In this document: piece after piece, positions 3,703-53,518 of the stretch
How positions within the stretch are numbered: position 1 is the first letter of the stretch
Layout: each line of letters opens with the position of its first letter
Origin: Escherichia phage vB_EcoM-101112UKE3-1
DNA: 64,000 nucleotides
Sequence record: MZ234013.1
Reading direction: 5' to 3' (one strand)
Notes under the pieces: generated by a model
Told to the model about the DNA's origin: nothing
The model's input: only the letters and a program-made list of their open reading frames with translations
The model's database searches: none
Made by a program: the position numbers and the translations under genes

Positions 3703-3926
3703 TGAGATATAGCATTGATGATGCTTTTAATTATGAAGAAGAATTTGAAACGGAAATTCAATTCTTAATGAAAAAGCATAATCTTAAGCGTCAGGATATT
3801 CGTATCCTGGCCGACCACCCGTGCGGTGAAGATGTTCTTTATATTAAAGGAAAATTTGCCGGATATCTTGATGAATATTTTTATTCTAAAGATATGGGCA
3901 TTGATATGCATATGAGAGTTGTATAA
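3702..3926 (+). CDS. uvsY.-1-like small protein
   Basis: 74 aa ORF coupled to uvsY stop; T4 synteny. Confidence 0.65.
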   Translation: MRYSIDDAFNYEEEFETEIQFLMKKHNLKRQDIRILADHPCGEDVLYIKGKFAGYLDEYFYSKDMGIDMHMRVV

Positions 3927-3954: not shown

Positions 3955-4122
3955 ATGTCAGATAAGATTTGTGTTGTCTGTAAAACTCCAATCGATTCTG
4001 CATTGGTTGTTGAAACAGACAAAGGTCCTGTACATCCTGGGCCTTGCTATAATTACATTAAAGAACTACCAGTTTCAGAAAGTTCGGAAGAACAATTAAA
4101 TGAAACGCAACTTTTGCTATAG
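3955..4122 (+). CDS. uvsY.-2-like small Cys-containing protein (55 aa)
   Basis: Hand-translated MSDKICVVCKTPIDSALVVETDKGPVHPGPCYNY...; SD gaggag upstream; TATAAATA at 3922..3929; below the 60 aa track cutoff. Confidence 0.45.
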   Translation: MSDKICVVCKTPIDSALVVETDKGPVHPGPCYNYIKELPVSESSEEQLNETQLLL

Positions 4123-4145
4123 TGTGACCTTTAGTCTATAGTTTT

Positions 4146-4176
4146 GGCCCTTCCTTTTTGGTTGGGCCTTTTTTAA
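4146..4176 (+). terminator. putative terminator after the uvsY operon
   Basis: ggccc...gggcc inverted repeat followed by tttttt. Confidence 0.35.
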
Positions 4177-4177
4177 T

Positions 4178-4408
4178 TTAAAAGCTTTCTTCTACTTCAT
4201 CGTCTGAATCTTCTAATTCAGCTCTTTTTCCTGCCAAAGCATCTCTGACTGAGATGTCATCAGTATCTTTTAATTCAGTTTCTTTAACTCTTTTCTTATA
4301 ATAAGCTTCAAGTTCTTCTAAACCTTCTAATGTTTGACAAGAGGCAATTTTACCCATAAATTCATCAATAGAAGCTTCATAAAGAAATTGTTTAAATTCT
4401 AGTAACAT
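4178..4408 (-). CDS. uvsW.1: UvsW.1 (small protein downstream of UvsW)
   Basis: Track ORF begins at a TTG; first in-frame ATG at 4408 with GGAG SD gives a 76 aa acidic protein, matching recalled T4 UvsW.1. Confidence 0.7.
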   Translation of the reverse strand: MLLEFKQFLYEASIDEFMGKIASCQTLEGLEELEAYYKKRVKETELKDTDDISVRDALAGKRAELEDSDDEVEESF

Positions 4409-4433: not shown

Positions 4434-5945
4434 TTATAAATTAACTGTTTTCATTACGTAATTAAATTTTTCATCTGCGTAGCGCTGAATACGATCAATG
4501 CCGTGTTTTAAAAGATAGTTCAAATGAACGTATTTCTTTTTCGTATTAGCAGATTTTGGCTTAACGCCACAATCATCTATGAGGTCCCAGACGGTTGCTA
4601 TTGTCTTAGAACCATGCTTACGTAATACACGACCGATTGTTTGTAATACAATGATTTTTGATTTAACACCGTGTGCTAAAACAACGTGATGCAGATTTTT
4701 AACTGAAATACCAGTAGAAAATACACCATAACTAGCTACTATAATTATTCCTTTACCGTTTTCAGCTAAGGTTTTCATTATATTGCGGGTTTCGGTATCA
4801 ACTTCCCCTGATACGTAATAAACTTTATCGTATTCATTTTTAATTAAATCGAAAATAGCTTTACCATGCGATACGTGTTTAAACATGACAAAAGCGTTTT
4901 CATCTTTTTGTGCAAGCTTAATAGCTAATTTAGCGATCCATTTATTTCTTTTACTAAGCCCAGTAATAATTTTTATTTCTTCTTGGTAAGTTTTTCCCTT
5001 TAATTTAGTAGTGAACTCATCGGGATAGCGAAGAAAAATACTATTAATTTTTAACTCAGTTACTTGTCCATCTTCCATTAATTTAGAGGTCGTTACTGGC
5101 TTAAATATTTCACCAAACATTCCAACATACTGCATGATATTGGCTTTGCCATCACGTAATGAACCAGACAAACCGAATTTGAACATGCAGTTATTTAAAC
5201 CTGATATGATAGATGAAATACTTTTTCCTGTAGCAAGATGACATTCATCATTCATCATCATTCCAAACTGTGAGAACCATTCTTTCGGTTGTTTTACTAC
5301 AGTTTGCCATGTACCAACAACGACCGGTGCATCATTTTTATATTTATCATCTTTTGATGCTCCACCACCGATTTTCTTTATCATTGCATGACTGAATAAA
5401 CGATAGTCAACAAAGTCATCAGCCATCTGAGTTGTCAGAGCAGTTGTTGGAACAATAATAAGAATTTTGCCTTCATAATTTTCCAAATAATACCGAGCAA
5501 GCAAAGCTTGAATTAAAGATTTACCTGCGGATGTTGGAAGATTAAGAATTCTACGACGATTAACTAATCCTTCGAACACTGCATCTTTTTGATACCAATG
5601 CGGTTCAATTCTTTTATTTCCTGAATAGATTTCTAATTTAGAAAGCCATTCATCAAAATCTTTTCTTGATAATTCTTCTTTTTCGTTAATCTGTGGGTCA
5701 ATCCAGGCTTTATAGCCAAAGTTATCGCAGAACTTTTTAATTTGCCCGACTAAACCGAATGGAAGAAGGCGATTATAATCTAAAAGACGAATTCGTCCAT
5801 CCCAGTGGCCATATCTGTACTTCGGATTAAAACGATACCCATCAGCTTCAAAGCTAAAGAAATCACGGAGTTCATGAAATGTACTTTCTTCACAATCAAT
5901 TCTCACGTGACTAAAATCATAAAAATGTACTTTAATGTCAGTCAT
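4434..5945 (-). CDS. uvsW: UvsW RNA-DNA/DNA helicase (SF2)
   Basis: 503 aa, near-identical to recalled T4 UvsW; helicase motifs (LNLPTSAGKS Walker A, DECH). Confidence 0.9.
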   Translation of the reverse strand: MTDIKVHFYDFSHVRIDCEESTFHELRDFFSFEADGYRFNPKYRYGHWDGRIRLLDYNRLLPFGLVGQIKKFCDNFGYKAWIDPQINEKEELSRKDFDEWLSKLEIYSGNKRIEPHWYQKDAVFEGLVNRRRILNLPTSAGKSLIQALLARYYLENYEGKILIIVPTTALTTQMADDFVDYRLFSHAMIKKIGGGASKDDKYKNDAPVVVGTWQTVVKQPKEWFSQFGMMMNDECHLATGKSISSIISGLNNCMFKFGLSGSLRDGKANIMQYVGMFGEIFKPVTTSKLMEDGQVTELKINSIFLRYPDEFTTKLKGKTYQEEIKIITGLSKRNKWIAKLAIKLAQKDENAFVMFKHVSHGKAIFDLIKNEYDKVYYVSGEVDTETRNIMKTLAENGKGIIIVASYGVFSTGISVKNLHHVVLAHGVKSKIIVLQTIGRVLRKHGSKTIATVWDLIDDCGVKPKSANTKKKYVHLNYLLKHGIDRIQRYADEKFNYVMKTVNL

Positions 5946-5974
5946 GTCTAAATACCATGTAATAAATATATCTA

Positions 5975-5982
5975 TATTTATA
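5975..5982 (-). promoter_or_regulatory. late promoter box (TATAAATA) for uvsW
   Basis: tatttata on plus strand, about 30 nt upstream of uvsW ATG. Confidence 0.4.
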
Positions 5983-5995
5983 CTGAGGAAATATT

Positions 5996-6676
5996 ATGAT
6001 AGATAAAGATTATATTGCAGAGCTGAAGGCTCTTGATGATAATAAAGAAGCTAAAGCTAAATTAGCTGAATATGCTGAACAGTTTGGTATAAAGGTCAAA
6101 AAGAATAAATCTTTTGATAATATCGTTAATGATATTGAAGAAGCTCTCCAGAAGCTCGCTAGTGAACCTATGCCAGAGACTGATGGGTTATCTATTAAAG
6201 ACTTAATTGATGCTGCTGATGCCGCAGACGGATTAAAATATGACGATGAAGAAGTCAATCCAGAGGCAGCACTTCTGATTGATTCTCCGGTTAAATCTGA
6301 CATTAAAATTGAAGTAGTAGAAACGGATAAAATTCCTGAAAATACCACTGTTTTAATTGAAGATACTCCTTTTGTTGAAGAAAAATTCGAACAGGCTGTA
6401 GCTGAGATTATTGAATCTGAAAAGCCGTCTGTATTTACTCTTCCGGAAAACTTTAGTCCGAATCTTCAGCTGATTGGAAAAAATCCAGGATTCTGCACTG
6501 TTCCTTGGTGGATTTATCAATGGATTGCTGAAACCCCAGATTGGAAATCTCACCCAACTAGTTTTGAACATGCGTCGGCACACCAAACTTTATTTAGCTT
6601 AATTTACTACATTAATCGTGACGGATCAGTTCTAATTCGTGAAACACGTAATTCTTCTTTCGTAACATTAAAATAA
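5996..6676 (+). CDS. inh: Inh, inhibitor of prohead protease gp21
   Basis: 226 aa, same length as T4 Inh; synteny next to hoc. Confidence 0.8.
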   Translation: MIDKDYIAELKALDDNKEAKAKLAEYAEQFGIKVKKNKSFDNIVNDIEEALQKLASEPMPETDGLSIKDLIDAADAADGLKYDDEEVNPEAALLIDSPVKSDIKIEVVETDKIPENTTVLIEDTPFVEEKFEQAVAEIIESEKPSVFTLPENFSPNLQLIGKNPGFCTVPWWIYQWIAETPDWKSHPTSFEHASAHQTLFSLIYYINRDGSVLIRETRNSSFVTLK

Positions 6677-48373: not shown

Positions 48374-48847
48374 ATGAAATCATATACTCAATTTTTAAAT
48401 GAAGCGGTGTTAAATGAAGCATCTAGCACTGAAATTCAAGCTGTTGCAAAAGCTGCCATTGCCGCGGGTAAATATTCCTATAAAGATGCTTCCGATGAAT
48501 CACGATTCCAATTTGCTCGTGATATGAAAGCCGAAGGATTTACAGGGAATGCAGTTAGTATGGCTTGGAAAAGTTTAGTTGCTACTGGAGCTGCTTTTGC
48601 AAAGGCTTCAGGTAAACCTGCTCCTAAAGCAGATCCTAAAGTCACACAAGAGAAAAATATTGTTAAAGGAATTATCTCCAAATATGAAGCTATCCTTAAA
48701 GAGCTTTTAGTAATCAAAACTGAAGGCCAAAAGCTAGCTCGTGCTTATAGTTTCAAAGATAACCCACATGTTCACTCTCTTGAGTATGTTGAAGACATCC
48801 AAAAAATTATTAAAGACCGCATTTGGTCTGCTAAACAAATCAAATAA
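48374..48847 (+). CDS. internal-protein-like protein with capsid-targeting-like leader
   Basis: 157 aa; MKSYTQFLNE-A resembles the IP leader; late promoter box about 37 nt upstream; flanked by duplicated terminators. Confidence 0.5.
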   Translation: MKSYTQFLNEAVLNEASSTEIQAVAKAAIAAGKYSYKDASDESRFQFARDMKAEGFTGNAVSMAWKSLVATGAAFAKASGKPAPKADPKVTQEKNIVKGIISKYEAILKELLVIKTEGQKLARAYSFKDNPHVHSLEYVEDIQKIIKDRIWSAKQIK

Positions 48848-48851
48848 CATT

Positions 48852-48885
48852 CTTAGCCCCGACCAAAAGGTTGGGGCTTTTTGGT
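48852..48885 (+). terminator. rho-independent terminator (copy 2, near-identical to 48297..48330)
   Basis: cttagccccgaccaaaaggttggggcttttt. Confidence 0.65.
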
Positions 48886-49015
48886 ATCTAGGCCTTTCCG
48901 GGCCTCTCTAGACATCATTTAGTTTCTACCCTTTATAATATATTATCCTATCTTTTAATTGCCCCTCCCTGCCCTAGAATTCCCTAAAACTTTTTAAAAA
49001 TTTTTTCACAAAACT

Positions 49016-49045
49016 GTTTACATCCCTGTTCTTCCATGGTACTAT
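49016..49045 (+). promoter_or_regulatory. T4 early-type promoter (class with tggtactatacaactatc)
   Basis: gtttac, 18 nt, TGgTACTAT; same module at about 59868 and 63456. Confidence 0.55.
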
Positions 49046-49087
49046 ACAACTATCAACTACTGATACAAAAACAACTTGGAGAATGAA

Positions 49088-49351
49088 ATGGATAATTACG
49101 GCGAACTGTTCAACTTCTTTATGAAATGTGTTTCAGAAGATTTCGGTCGTACAGTGAATGATATTAAAGTTATCGGTCCTGACCATCCGATGTTTGAAAC
49201 CTATGCAGTAATGGGTAATGAAGATGGTCAGTGGTATACTGTAAAGGTTGTGATTAACATGTTCACTGCTGAAGGTTATGTTAAACTGTCTTCTAAAGTT
49301 TACCATGATAACGATGAAATCGCAGAAGAATATTTCAATAATATGAAATAA
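49088..49351 (+). CDS. hypothetical protein
   Basis: 87 aa from the ATG at 49088 (SD ggag); track ORF starts at a TTG at 49076. Confidence 0.5.
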   Translation: MDNYGELFNFFMKCVSEDFGRTVNDIKVIGPDHPMFETYAVMGNEDGQWYTVKVVINMFTAEGYVKLSSKVYHDNDEIAEEYFNNMK

Positions 49352-49420
49352 TTGTGTACAAACGCCAAGGACGGTGTTATTATAGACTTATCAAAACAAA
49401 TACAGAAAACGGAGAAATAA

Positions 49421-49597
49421 ATGACTACTTTAATTATTTGGTTCGACGAAAATGAAGAAACATACTGCGTGAACATTGGCGAAAGCCCAATGCCAGAATT
49501 TGAATCTTCGGATAAAAACTCGGTTGTATCTTGGGCTGAAGGTTATAAAGCAGCAAAAGGCGATGTTGAAATAGTTTACAAACTATCCGGAGTATAA
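49421..49597 (+). CDS. small hypothetical protein (58 aa)
   Basis: Hand-translated MTTLIIWFDENEETYCVNIGESPMPEF...; SD ggag; below track cutoff; preferred over the antisense track ORF 49434..49622. Confidence 0.4.
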   Translation: MTTLIIWFDENEETYCVNIGESPMPEFESSDKNSVVSWAEGYKAAKGDVEIVYKLSGV

Positions 49598-49640
49598 TAC
49601 TCTCATGGATTTTAAATCTCAATTAACCTAAGGAAATACT

Positions 49641-50234
49641 ATGAACACACTGAAGAAAATTGTTGAGTTTATTCGCACTAAACTTGGTTCTGCTATGGCT
49701 AAAAATCTATCTGTCGAAGAACAGTATACTGCTGCAGCAGCAAAACTACTTGATAAAATTAAAGATCTAAAAACTGCTTCTGTTAAATCTATTAACGAAG
49801 AAAAACGTATTCGTGAACTTGTTATCGAAAAGAATCGACAGGCCGAATCAAAAGAGCGTGAAATTCGTAAACTTCTTTCCGAAGGCCAAGATGTAACAAT
49901 GCATGCTAAACTCGGTTTACTATATCGTCGAACAGCTGAGCAGTTGACTACTAAGGCTGACGGTTATGCTGAAATGCGAATTGAAATCGCCAAGAAAGTA
50001 GTTGAGTTAGATGATGCTCGTCAAGAACTTGCGGTTAAATTGGAATATATCCGTGAAACTCGTGCAGCAAATGCCCTTGGAATTAGTACTGCCGATGATG
50101 TAGTTGAAATTGCAGCACTGACTAAGGTTGATATTGAAGATACCCTTGCTCGAGTTGAAACCTTTAACGGTAATATTTCTGGGGTTGAAACTACCTCTGC
50201 CGATGTTCAGGAATACATTAATTCTCTGAAATAA
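49641..50234 (+). CDS. hypothetical coiled-coil protein
   Basis: 197 aa, heptad-rich charged sequence; SD aaggaa. Confidence 0.55.
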
Positions 50235-50236
50235 TG

Positions 50237-50258
50237 ATAAGGGGCTTCGGCCCCTTAT
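50237..50258 (+). other. GC hairpin after the 49641 ORF (possible terminator or processing site)
   Basis: ataaggggcttcggccccttat; weak T-tract. Confidence 0.35.
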
Positions 50259-50275
50259 ACTTGGAGTAAATAGGA

Positions 50276-50884
50276 ATGAAAATGCAAAGTGATTTCAATT
50301 CAATGTTTGAAGAGTTCCAAAGACAGGTTGATGTTCCAGACCAATTACTAAATGCTCTTAAACGCATGGCAGAAGGACGTAATTACTATTGGGGGTCTTC
50401 ATATGAAACTGATGAAAGCCTTTCCGGAAGATTTTCTAGAGGTAAAAAGTCTTTAATACGTCCTGGAATACTCATTAACAGTATTGAATCAATTCATTCA
50501 TTGACGTGTGATTTTGATGTTGAATTTACTGATTTCATTTCTCCTGAATGGACGGTTTGTTATTTAAACGACGATTTTGATTATCTCGGTGTTTATAGTT
50601 TAAGTGACGCATGGTTTAAACGTAATTTACAAAAGTCAAATTTATTTTATATTGATACTACTGTAAAATTTCAGGGCAAGAAATATTTCTTTACTCTTAT
50701 AGTTGATTCTGAAACGAAGCATGAAAATAAACGTATTCTTAGTAAAAAGAATATCTTAACTATTGTTGATGATCTTTTTGATAAATTTGTAGAAAATCCC
50801 AATTTTGAAAGTGATTTATTACTAGAAAAATTTGTTAAGGAATGTAGAGAATATGTCAAAACCATCACTATACCTTCCAAGTAA
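50276..50884 (+). CDS. hypothetical protein ending in the F-V-x-E-C-R junction motif
   Basis: 202 aa; C-terminus EKFVKECREYVKTITIPSK overlaps the next gene's RBS. Confidence 0.5.
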   Translation: MKMQSDFNSMFEEFQRQVDVPDQLLNALKRMAEGRNYYWGSSYETDESLSGRFSRGKKSLIRPGILINSIESIHSLTCDFDVEFTDFISPEWTVCYLNDDFDYLGVYSLSDAWFKRNLQKSNLFYIDTTVKFQGKKYFFTLIVDSETKHENKRILSKKNILTIVDDLFDKFVENPNFESDLLLEKFVKECREYVKTITIPSK

Positions 50885-51245
50885 ACCTGTGAAGTATGAA
50901 CCAAAGCGTCAGATAATTTCTACTGATGTGTTAATAGGTCCTGTTATACTCATATCATTTGTAATTCTATTGATTATTGGAGGTGTTTTAGATGTTATGA
51001 CTGATATTGATTCTGGCGAAATACTTGTGTTAATGCTAATTCTTCCATTAATAGTTCCACTTTTATTAGTACCCGTAAATTGGGTAGGATACTGGTATCA
51101 AGGAAGACATTATCGTAAACGTGTACGTGATTGGAAAGCTCAGTGTAAAAAGATTAAAAAGGAACACCAGCTTAAGCTAGATATGTATGAATTTGATGAA
51201 ATTATGAAATTTGTTAAGGAATCACGATGCAAAAGCCAAAACTAA
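50853..51245 (+). CDS. small membrane protein (two predicted TM helices)
   Basis: 130 aa from the ATG at 50853 (track ORF starts at a TTG); ends MKFVKESRCKSQN. Confidence 0.5.
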   Translation: MSKPSLYLPSKPVKYEPKRQIISTDVLIGPVILISFVILLIIGGVLDVMTDIDSGEILVLMLILPLIVPLLLVPVNWVGYWYQGRHYRKRVRDWKAQCKKIKKEHQLKLDMYEFDEIMKFVKESRCKSQN

Positions 51246-51589
51246 ATAAAGTCAAATATTCGTTTCCTGAGGCACTATTAATTCTTGCTGTATCAGTATT
51301 TACAGCTCTTGCGGGTAGTCTTATTGGATTGTTAATTGACTGTTTTATTTTAAATATCGACGGCACAGTAATTATAACAGAGGTTTGGAGTGAACTTCGT
51401 TTTACTATAGCGATTTCATTATTTTCATTCTTTGGTACCATGTTATATTTTCATTATGATAATTTTAAAATAAATTGGCAAAGAAAAAAGGATTACAAAA
51501 TACAATTAAAAGAATATAATAGCTACATGTCTTATATTGAAAATGAGTCAATGAAAGAGTTTGTGAGTGATTGTAGGAAAATTAAATGA
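51227..51589 (+). CDS. small membrane protein (two predicted TM helices)
   Basis: 120 aa; ends KEFVSDCRKIK. Confidence 0.5.
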   Translation: MQKPKLNKVKYSFPEALLILAVSVFTALAGSLIGLLIDCFILNIDGTVIITEVWSELRFTIAISLFSFFGTMLYFHYDNFKINWQRKKDYKIQLKEYNSYMSYIENESMKEFVSDCRKIK

Positions 51590-52074
51590 TTTTAAAAACT
51601 CGCTGGTATGATTTAGATGATGGGGACGATGGCATTTCAGTTGATAGAGTTGACTGGAATGGTTGTTCCGAAGATATGAAAAATTTGTTGATTAGGGAGT
51701 TTAGAATGGGATATCAAGCAGCTAAGCCATTTACTGTAACAGATGATAAGTTCGTATGTATTCAAAACGGTCGCGCTAAGTTAACGAATGCTGATTGGTT
51801 CACAGATAAGAAGGTTCTTCTGTGGTATATCATTAGTCTTCCTATATCATCGTTCGTATTTTACTTTTTTATAAAAAATCCAATGGACAGAATAGGAGAT
51901 TGGGTTCTTTTAACTATACTTGTTAATATTTTTACAGCAGCAGTATTATCAGGAATATGGCGTATGTTCATTGAAATGCCATGGCGTTTACGCAGACAAC
52001 AAAAGATTTTTGATGAAAAGAAATATACTCAAAATTTAAATAACTTTATCACTGAATGCAGGAAATTAAAATGA
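51586..52074 (+). CDS. small membrane protein (two predicted TM helices)
   Basis: 162 aa; ends NNFITECRKLK. Confidence 0.5.
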   Translation: MILKTRWYDLDDGDDGISVDRVDWNGCSEDMKNLLIREFRMGYQAAKPFTVTDDKFVCIQNGRAKLTNADWFTDKKVLLWYIISLPISSFVFYFFIKNPMDRIGDWVLLTILVNIFTAAVLSGIWRMFIEMPWRLRRQQKIFDEKKYTQNLNNFITECRKLK

Positions 52075-52511
52075 AAACACTATCAGCTGGTATTATCTTT
52101 ATGACAGAAGATAAAGATTTATTTATGGGTCGGGTTACTGGTTCTCGTAAGCCTGGAATGATGGCACATCGCTGGGATATTCCAAAGGGCCGCGTAGAAA
52201 GTTCTGATTTGAATGCACTGGAAGCTGCAAAAAGAGAATGCTTAGAAGAGACCGGTTTTAGCAATTATAATCCAGACCTTCTAGAAGACCTAGGTGTATT
52301 TAAATATTCTAGTAATAAAGACTTACAGTTATTTTATTATACGATTCCAGTAGAGCATGAGATGTTTAGAAATTGCCATTGCGAGTCTTATTTTGAAAAT
52401 AAAGATGGCGTTATGATTCCAGAGATGGATGCTTTTGCTCTTATTCCTCGTACTCAGTGGCAATATGTGATGGGTCCTTCACTTTACCGAATAATGAACA
52501 GCCTCTTTTAA
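52056..52511 (+). CDS. nudE: Nudix hydrolase NudE (e.1)
   Basis: Nudix box GRVESSDLNALEAAKRECLEETG; 151 aa from the ATG at 52056; alternative start 52071 has the better SD (aggaaa). Confidence 0.75.
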   Translation: MQEIKMKTLSAGIIFMTEDKDLFMGRVTGSRKPGMMAHRWDIPKGRVESSDLNALEAAKRECLEETGFSNYNPDLLEDLGVFKYSSNKDLQLFYYTIPVEHEMFRNCHCESYFENKDGVMIPEMDAFALIPRTQWQYVMGPSLYRIMNSLF

Positions 52512-53042
<531 letters not shown>

Positions 53043-53046
53043 AGTT

Positions 53047-53077
53047 GTTTACTTTCTCCTAGAATTGTGATAGTATA
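53047..53077 (+). promoter_or_regulatory. T4 early-type promoter upstream of denV
   Basis: gtttac, spacer, tgtgatagtat. Confidence 0.5.
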
Positions 53078-53101
53078 TTCACAGTTACTTGGAGGGATAA
53101 A

Positions 53102-53518
53102 ATGACTCGTATTAATTTGACTTTAGTATCTGAACTTGCTGATCAACATTTAATCGCAGAATACCGTGAATTGCCGCGTGTTTTTGGTATAGTTCGTAAG
53201 CATGTGGCAAACGGTAAGCGCGTTAAAGATTTTAAAATATCTTCTAAATTTATTTTAGGTTCTGGTCATGTTACTTTCTTTTACGATAAGTTAGAATTTT
53301 TGCGAAAGCGTCAATCGGACATTATAACGGAATGCTTAAAACGCGGGTTCAGTATAAAAGATACTGAAGTTCCTGACATCAGCGATATTCCAGTAGAATG
53401 GAAAAATGATTATAATCCATGTAAATCAGCTATTAAGTTGAGTCAACAACGACTCGATGAAAAAATTTTAATGAAGCCACACTGGTATAAGTATTACGGC
53501 AAAAATATTTACATTTAA
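53102..53518 (+). CDS. denV: endonuclease V (pyrimidine dimer DNA glycosylase, DenV)
   Basis: 138 aa; [29 protein letters not shown] matches T4 endonuclease V. Confidence 0.9.

Follow-up and report, generated by a model that had tools for sequence, protein, structure and literature searches.

The accessory genes e.5, e.4, e.3 and e.2 of T-even phages, which precede nudE, carry a common peptide in their tails, and the codons of this peptide hold the Shine-Dalgarno (SD) sequence of the gene that follows. The array was analysed in a stretch of 64,000 nucleotides (nt) from Escherichia phage vB_EcoM-101112UKE3-1 (MZ234013.1), referred to below as the window. The consensus of the tail is [N/E/K]-F-[V/I]-x-[E/D]-C-R-[K/G/N], and the peptide is shared by five T-even gene families. 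Comparison of sequences across genera indicates that it is under purifying selection as a protein. The account favoured here, with a probability of roughly 0.6, is that the membrane genes of the array are diverged tandem duplicates, that a selected tail peptide hosts the SD, and that short identities act as crossover points in recombination.

The C-termini listed in the initial annotation were recovered unchanged: ...EKFVKECREYVKTITIPSK for e.5, ...MKFVKESRCKSQN for e.4, ...EFVSDCRKIK for e.3 and ...NFITECRKLK for e.2. Its placement of the motif at the very C-terminal end holds for e.3 and e.2, but not for e.5 and e.4. There, the motif directly precedes the ATG of the next gene, with gene overlaps of 32 nt (e.5/e.4) and 19 nt (e.4/e.3). 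Read in six frames, the window contains the strict form F[VI]x[ED]CR three times, in the tails of e.5, e.3 and e.2. Allowing Ser in place of Cys adds the e.4 tail as the sole extra occurrence. In six frames of the other 106 kb of the nearest relative's genome, the strict motif was absent. Over these ~170 kb, the expected count is about 0.26, and none of 200 shuffles reached three. None of the 33 other tight-junction C-termini of the window has the motif. The tail motif is real and specific.

Homologues in other genera keep the motif at overall identities of 30-46%. In Mosigvirus S143_2, the e.5 homologue (46% identical) has the tail ...QFIMECREYVK..., e.4 has ...EFVKEIRCKSLNS, e.3 has ...NFIKECRK and the e.2 homologue, which overlaps nudE by ATGA, has ...RFITECRNLR. 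An extra gene of this phage, encoding a protein of 101 amino acids (aa) with two transmembrane (TM) segments, ends in ...NFIKECRGK. In Dhakavirus dhaeg and phage fDHCT2, the tails of the e.2 homologues (32-46% identical) read ...FIEECRK and ...FIKECRK. The codons behind the constant residues vary. Over 11 tails, Arg is encoded by AGA (four), AGG (three), CGA (two) or CGT (two), Cys by TGT or TGC, and Phe by TTT or TTC. Among 14 Tequatrovirus loci, changes within the motif are nearly all synonymous third-position changes or fall on the x position; one exception, Val to Ala, is found in a single locus. The proportion of variable columns at these loci is 0-8% in three motif segments and 20% in the e.3 segment, compared with 13-25% over whole genes. 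The motif segment is less variable than its gene in three of four tails, and the e.3 tail is about equal to its gene. Since the peptide is kept across genera while its DNA has changed, purifying selection acts on the peptide. The initial annotation had set a similarity confined to the SD-ATG core against its own proposal. The similarity reaches further at the protein level: the Phe, Val/Ile and Cys residues of the motif are conserved across genera.

The same codons serve translation initiation. The proposal that the tail doubles as a ribosome-binding module for the next gene was borne out, with an SD-like run before the next ATG in all 11 tails. This is a GGA-containing purine run, located 4-10 nt before the ATG and read in three codon registers. 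In the window, the runs AAGGAA or AGGAAA sit 5-10 nt before each of the four ATGs. The AGGAA first given as the SD is indeed placed in tail codons, but its exact form differs between junctions, being AAGGAA (Lys-Glu) for the starts of e.4 and e.3 and AGGAAA (Arg-Lys) for those of e.2 and nudE. In the first register, the run is formed by x-Glu codons (AAG or GAG followed by GAA); Mosigvirus e.5 has a weaker version, ATG GAA. Arg-Lys or Arg-Asn codons (AGG followed by AAA or AAT) provide the second register and Arg-Gly codons (CGA GGA) the third. Where the x-Glu codons of a member cannot form (A/G)AGGAA, and only there, AGG-AAx or CGA-GGA takes their place. The peptide is constant while the SD shifts register inside its codons.

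Because the genes overlap head to tail, the SD of the next gene must sit in tail codons. The overlaps at e.3/e.2 and e.2/nudE are 4 nt each. Tight packing is ordinary here: 37 of the 62 same-strand junctions of the window overlap or lie within 15 nt. Most simply, e.5 to nudE would represent a single translationally coupled unit. The array resembles the translationally coupled overlapping genes of T4 and compact phages in its overlaps of 4-32 nt and in the location of the SD inside the last codons of the upstream gene. It goes beyond generic coupling in that one conserved peptide hosts the SD in three codon registers across 11 genes. Internal promoters at the junctions were rejected: 21 promoter-like sites were counted in 48800-53200, against 19 +/- 4 in shuffles, and none was located consistently at the four junctions. 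An RNA structure common to the junctions was rejected as well. Three of four junctions fold no better than shuffles, and e.3/e.2 is the one that does (-13.7 kcal/mol, z = -2.4).

On the level of DNA, the junctions fall into two pairs. The consensus proposed in the initial annotation describes e.3/e.2 and e.2/nudE, which align over about 50 nt, but not e.5/e.4 and e.4/e.3. The latter two share an identical 16-mer, AAATTTGTTAAGGAAT, at 50828-50843 and 51207-51222. Within each pair, the similarity has a shuffle p <= 0.0005 and both scores lie above those of all 190 background pairs of tight junctions. Between the pairs, DNA similarity is at the level of shuffles (p 0.3-0.9). A single four-way DNA cassette was not upheld; the four-way likeness is confined to the peptide. 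The 16 nt identity of the e.5 and e.4 tails is found in Tequatrovirus and is absent in Mosigvirus. A further match was observed 3' of the ATGs of e.2 and nudE. GCTGGTATGATTTAGATGA (51602-51620) and GCTGGTATTATCTTTATGA (52086-52104), located 15-16 nt after these ATGs, agree in 15 of 19 nt and prolong the similarity of the e.3/e.2 and e.2/nudE junctions, in different reading frames. This match is probably due to chance, because the Mosigvirus e.2 protein at this place (Y-W-S, not R-W-Y) excludes a shared GCTGGTAT string.

Natural isolates have recombined within the tails. Phage RB32 lacks e.2 precisely: its e.3 ends in ...FVSDCRKLK and passes by ATGA into nudE, with the switch from e.3-type to e.2-type sequence inside TGY-AGGAAA. 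The left breakpoint of the deletion is in the e.3 motif and the right one in the e.2 motif. The resulting junction, GAT TGY AGGAAA TTAAAATGA, is present in T2, RB32, RB33, PP01, PST and others, and it was covered in a single piece in 53 of 60 among the matches listed. At >= 80% identity, e.5 was found in 502 records and e.2 in 447, which leaves about 55 of some 500 Tequatrovirus records without e.2. In Mosigvirus, too, e.2 is joined to nudE by ATGA, and the absence of e.2 is therefore the derived state. The deletion occurs on three e.3-tail haplotypes, each of which is also present in e.2-containing phages, and this fits either recurrence or later exchange.

Another rearrangement is present in UFV05, UFV06 and UFV11. 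There, an in-frame fusion links the N-terminus of e.4 with the membrane domain and tail of e.2, and e.3 is lost. The join lies in a 9-nt identity, CCTGTGACA, which encodes Pro-Val-Thr at the start of the first transmembrane segment (TM1). In-register recombination at a repeated junction had been suggested by the initial annotation. The natural e.2 deletion does break in the shared tails, but there is no sign that the junction was selected for recombination. Deletion and fusion were the only events seen between these junctions, with no shuffling of different genes. In Dhakavirus dhaeg (3992-4228) and fDHCT2 (3998-4234), a gene for an acidic 78-aa protein lies between the e.2 homologue and nudE. 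This gene and nudE both start with ATGAGTA, which suggests an insertion at a start-codon microhomology.

Related systems are known from T4-type phages, in which PeSL (promoter-early stem-loop) cassettes, conserved boundary sequences that include SD and ATG, mediate the loss and gain of small open reading frames (ORFs) (PMC2839356; PMC4122927). The array shares with PeSL the short gene-boundary sequences, the hyperplastic region and the use as crossover points (Arbiol et al. 2010, PMC2839356; Comeau et al. 2014, PMC4122927). PeSL are intergenic and contain a sigma-70-like promoter and a GC-rich stem-loop, whereas the junctions from e.5 to nudE are coding overlaps and are conserved as peptide, not as DNA. 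No sigma-70-like -35/-10 promoter was found consistently at the four junctions, and no GC-rich stem-loop of the PeSL type; the sole GC-rich hairpin is located upstream of e.5 (50237-50258). The T-even internal-protein (IP) genes are a second relative. According to the account of Repoila et al. (1994) given in PMC2839356, they have a conserved 5' motif that is thought to combine a role at the protein level with homology for shuffling. In that account, as in the array, small genes at a polymorphic T-even locus have one short conserved segment in common and are dissimilar apart from it. The IP motif described there is 5' or N-terminal and includes an early promoter, whereas the motif of e.5 to e.2 is C-terminal and inside an operon. 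The current understanding of T4 biology is unchanged by the array, which is an instance of kinds already described.

The descent of the genes was examined through their architecture. Transmembrane segments were called by a crude hydropathy scan. Of the three small two-TM proteins proposed initially, e.2 and e.4 have two segments and e.3 has one strong and one weaker segment; e.5 has none. One layout recurs in the products of e.4, e.3, e.2 and of the 101-aa gene of Mosigvirus: a pair of hydrophobic segments with a short loop that is acidic or neutral, then a basic tail of 30-55 aa and the terminal motif. These are small hairpin proteins of the inner membrane, and the distribution of charges suggests that both of their ends face the cytoplasm. 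Their basic cytoplasmic tail would probably form a helix. The membrane genes of the array are adjacent and co-oriented, and they have the same architecture, as expected of tandem paralogues; e.5 is the exception. The N-termini of e.3 and e.4 both read M-[Q/S]-K-P-x-L in two genera. Both junction pairs also show the similarity across the junction that duplication of a unit would leave. In e.4, a segment WKAQCKKIK was aligned by MAFFT to the termini of e.2 and e.3; it is partly kept in Mosigvirus e.4 as EWKVQCAKAQ. This suggests that e.4 consists of a core and a 28-aa extension bearing a second copy of the motif. The N-terminal domain of e.2 (51586-51810) has its own conserved pattern in three genera, W-x-[D/N]-[L/I]-D-D-[G/A]-[D/N]-[E/D]-G-I-S...V-D-W-x-x-C. 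Together with the tail Cys, its Cys would bring the conserved Cys of e.2 that face the cytoplasm to two or more.

A tandem paralogous family, as first proposed, is supported by architecture, adjacency and junction similarity, but not by any significant similarity beyond the motif. Architecture and adjacency make common descent of e.2, e.3 and e.4 plausible and the most likely reading. The membrane genes would then be diverged tandem duplicates, with the tail peptide as their sole recognisable remnant, and past fusions with family members would have left the tail of e.5 and the second tail of e.4. The peptide may be a shared element for contact or oligomerisation in the cytoplasm, in which the Cys would be essential. 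Its purine-rich codons supply the SD of the next gene in whichever register is available. The short identities between adjoining tails, and between the starts of TM1, serve the phage recombination system as crossover points. The in-frame products, loss of e.2 and e.4::e.2 fusions, would be a by-product of the shared sequence and not a selected function. Three constraints meet on one stretch of 20-30 nt: the function of the peptide, the start of translation of the gene that follows, and homology for recombination. The predicted Cys-containing cytoplasmic tail, with its conserved sequence, offers a handle on the uncharacterised T4 accessory genes e.2-e.5.

Several observations weigh against this account. 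Alignments of family profiles with hhalign gave P values of 2e-5 to 2.5e-4, barely better than the reversed-sequence controls (best 3.4e-4), and P rose to >= 0.01 for all family pairs when the motif was trimmed. An apparent hhalign homology over 37-65 columns was rejected, since the reversed and motif-trimmed controls show that the signal is essentially the motif. The family profiles are shallow, and this outcome leaves homology undemonstrated without being evidence against it. e.5 matches the other families over the motif alone (10-14 motif columns). AlphaFold2 models reached a pLDDT of 50 for e.2 (12-sequence alignment) and 38 for e.5 (single sequence), which is too poor for fold searches. 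A search with a synthetic junction for loss of e.4 between the two AAATTTGTTAAGGAAT copies brought up no such deletion in its best 25 matches. In several isolates, a frameshift in an A-run of e.3 has removed the tail, some of these cases possibly being sequencing errors. The tail is possibly dispensable; e.2 is truncated in T4.

A different origin of the tail was considered in which a portable module, made of peptide, SD and ATG, was copied onto unrelated genes at their boundaries as a common targeting or docking signal. This is possible, if unlikely. The soluble e.5, with its match to the others over 10-14 motif columns only, fits it well, as do the two motif copies in e.4, the 16 identical nt of the e.5 and e.4 tails in Tequatrovirus that Mosigvirus does not have, the loss of significant between-family similarity on trimming of the motif, and the fact that natural recombination has taken place precisely here. 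The membrane members, three or four in number, are, however, alike in architecture, tail length and adjacent position, and e.3 and e.4 also have the N-terminal M-x-K-P-x-L in common. Undetected homology is weak evidence for such copying, as small TM proteins quickly lose similarity. A functional variant draws on the IP leader, which has a capsid-targeting role. As its mirror image, the tail peptide might be a portable cytoplasmic address or docking tag that would bring soluble e.5 and the membrane hairpins to a common partner or a Cys-linked assembly; tails would be swapped via the SD-bearing DNA, giving the e.5 tail and the double tail of e.4. This analogy is speculative and somewhat less likely again than the copied module. 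A cassette selected for recombination, in which the junction repeat promotes in-register gain and loss of genes as in PeSL elements or integron sites, is improbable. Such a cassette agrees with the e.2-deletion breakpoints inside the repeat, with the three e.3-tail haplotypes, which are compatible with recurrence, and with the about 10% of Tequatrovirus records that lack e.2. But the DNA similarity is present in two pairs and is not four-way, the identities are very short (6-16 nt), and neither promoter enrichment nor a common stem-loop was found at the junctions. The UFV hybrid is joined at a different identity, within TM1. Across genera, amino acids are conserved with altered codons, the opposite of what a DNA site predicts.

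Regulation at the RNA level has a still lower probability. An A/U-rich operator, AGGAAA(A)UUAAA(A)UGA, would bind a translational regulator such as T4 RegA, or an RNA structure would form, and the peptide would be incidental. RegA binds at A/U-rich sequences that include initiation codons, and its site at T4 gene 44 presumably resembles GAGGAAAUUAUG. This likeness and the folding of the e.3/e.2 junction are in line with an operator; the shuffle-like folding of the remaining three junctions and the different DNA at e.5/e.4 and e.4/e.3 are not. Other genera retain the peptide and alter the nucleotides and the distance to the ATG. A chance origin, in which AT-rich DNA and the need for AGGA before an ATG yield similar C-terminal codons, could draw on the Lys, Glu and Arg codons of purine-rich SD runs and on the commonness of tight junctions in the window. 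Phe, Val/Ile and Cys, however, have no SD explanation. With the motif missing from all 33 other tight junctions, three occurrences against 0.26 expected genome-wide, every match clustered, and the motif kept in three genera with variable codons, chance or a pure SD constraint is effectively refuted. The account by tandem duplication and a selected tail peptide is preferred over these alternatives.

Database searches placed the array within T-even phages. Searches of Pfam (a copy without the PF26873 and PF26896 models), NCBIfam and PDB sequences gave nothing significant for e.5, e.4, e.3 and e.2. Database proteins 97-99% identical to e.4 and e.2 of the window carry the precomputed families PF26873 and PF26896, respectively; judged by this identity, e.4 very likely belongs to PF26873 and e.2 to PF26896. 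These are separate families, and no link was found from one to the other, to e.3 or to the tail motif. In PHROGs, the four genes are assigned to four separate families of unknown function. For e.3 and e.4, no relatives beyond T-even phages were found among 5.8 billion proteins. A joint profile, searched against 1.84 billion representative proteins, gave nine matches, all of the T-even e.2, e.3 or e.4 types; as this search missed the Mosigvirus 101-aa gene and the Dhakavirus e.2, motif-only relatives may exist elsewhere. The 101-aa gene was found in Mosigvirus only (150 records). Distant nudE-containing viral contigs (L007-L014) had no motif upstream of nudE. A literature search for e.2-e.5, UniProt y06M-P and nudE/segB returned nothing on these genes. 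As far as these sequence comparisons reach, the family is confined to T-even phages.

The window is a segment of a Tequatrovirus genome; its region 50200-52600 has 99.7% identity to Yersinia phage PYPS2T, and 513 phage records match it. According to RB32 and T4 annotation, the four ORFs correspond to T4 e.5, e.4, e.3 and e.2; downstream of them come nudE, the lysozyme gene e and denV. The array is located in an accessory region, with the tRNA/segB cluster on one side and the lysozyme gene on the other. In older T4 records, these genes are named msp4-msp7. The coordinates are collected in the table.

Features of the e.5-nudE array and its upstream neighbourhood (window coordinates)
Feature	Position	Strand	Basis
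e.6 homologue, 197 aa, no motif; upstream neighbour	49641..50234	+	RB32/T4 annotation; phrog_1203
GC-rich palindromic stem-loop ATAAGGGGCTTCGGCCCCTTAT, between e.6 and e.5	50237..50258	.	terminator-like match
e.5, 202 aa, soluble, no TM segment, tail ...LLLEKFVKECREYVKTITIPSK	50276..50884	+	ORF list; phrog_2607; hydropathy scan
e.5 motif copy F-V-K-E-C-R; Lys-Glu codons AAGGAA at 50837-50842, 10 nt before e.4 ATG (50853)	50831..50848	+	
e.4, 130 aa, two TM (about 50943-50999, 51021-51077), 55-aa basic tail	50853..51245	+	phrog_2604; hydropathy scan
e.4 internal motif-like segment W-K-A-Q-C-K-K-I-K	51132..51158	+	MAFFT alignment to e.3/e.2 C-terminal motifs
e.4 terminal motif F-V-K-E-S-R-C-K; AAGGAA at 51216-51221, 5 nt before e.3 ATG (51227)	51210..51233	+	
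e.3, 120 aa, strong TM1 (about 51281-51337), weaker TM2 (about 51395-51457), basic tail	51227..51589	+	phrog_2330; hydropathy scan
e.3 motif F-V-S-D-C-R-K-I-K; AGGAAA at 51575-51580, SD-like run for e.2; ATGA overlap 51586-51589	51560..51586	+	
e.2, 162 aa, N-terminal soluble domain, two TM (about 51817-51873, 51901-51957), 38-aa basic tail	51586..52074	+	phrog_2203
e.2 motif F-I-T-E-C-R-K-L-K; AGGAAA at 52060-52065, SD-like run for nudE; ATGA overlap 52071-52074	52045..52071	+	
nudE (e.1), Nudix hydrolase, no motif, last gene coupled to the array	52071..52511	+	Pfam NUDIX E = 3e-13; phrog_1185

T4 record L13089 and phage G10400 both carry an annotation of the hairpin between e.6 and e.5, as a putative stem_loop or terminator, and the coupled e.5-nudE block likely begins after it. 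In T4, e.2 has lost 1 nt from an A-run (window 51873-51878; about 3790-3810 of the T4 stretch), resulting in a truncation to 102 aa. This product is without the second TM segment and the tail, whereas e.2 of the window is intact. For annotation, the T4 reference e.2 is a frameshifted remnant and the 162-aa form is the full-length gene. RB32 and several database variants have a longer or shorter form of the A6 run that lies in the WQRKKD codons of e.3 (window 51484-51489; 4285-4300 of the RB32 stretch). The variants include 97-aa forms that end in ...WQRKKGLQNTIKRI and have lost the tail motif, either by real variation or by homopolymer sequencing error. GenBank homologues of e.3, e.4 and e.6 are labelled 'sulfurtransferase', 'host specificity protein', 'DNA primase' or 'phosphoserine phosphatase', and the family searches gave no support for these four labels.

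Two neighbouring observations concern gene content. Mosigvirus S143_2 has three tandem small genes at 5284-6078 (101, 90 and 65 aa), all ending in W-[V/I]-[S/A]-S-S-x-x-C. The first two are then followed by TAAGGAAnCAnTATG, and the trio has the e.3 homologue on one side and the remaining genes of the array on the other. From its sequence, it resembles another tandem family in which C-terminus and junction are conserved. In the window, the lysozyme gene e lies directly before denV (53043-53101), where the polymorphic internal-protein locus is empty; between e and denV, T4 has ipIII and ipII, and RB32 has Ip4.

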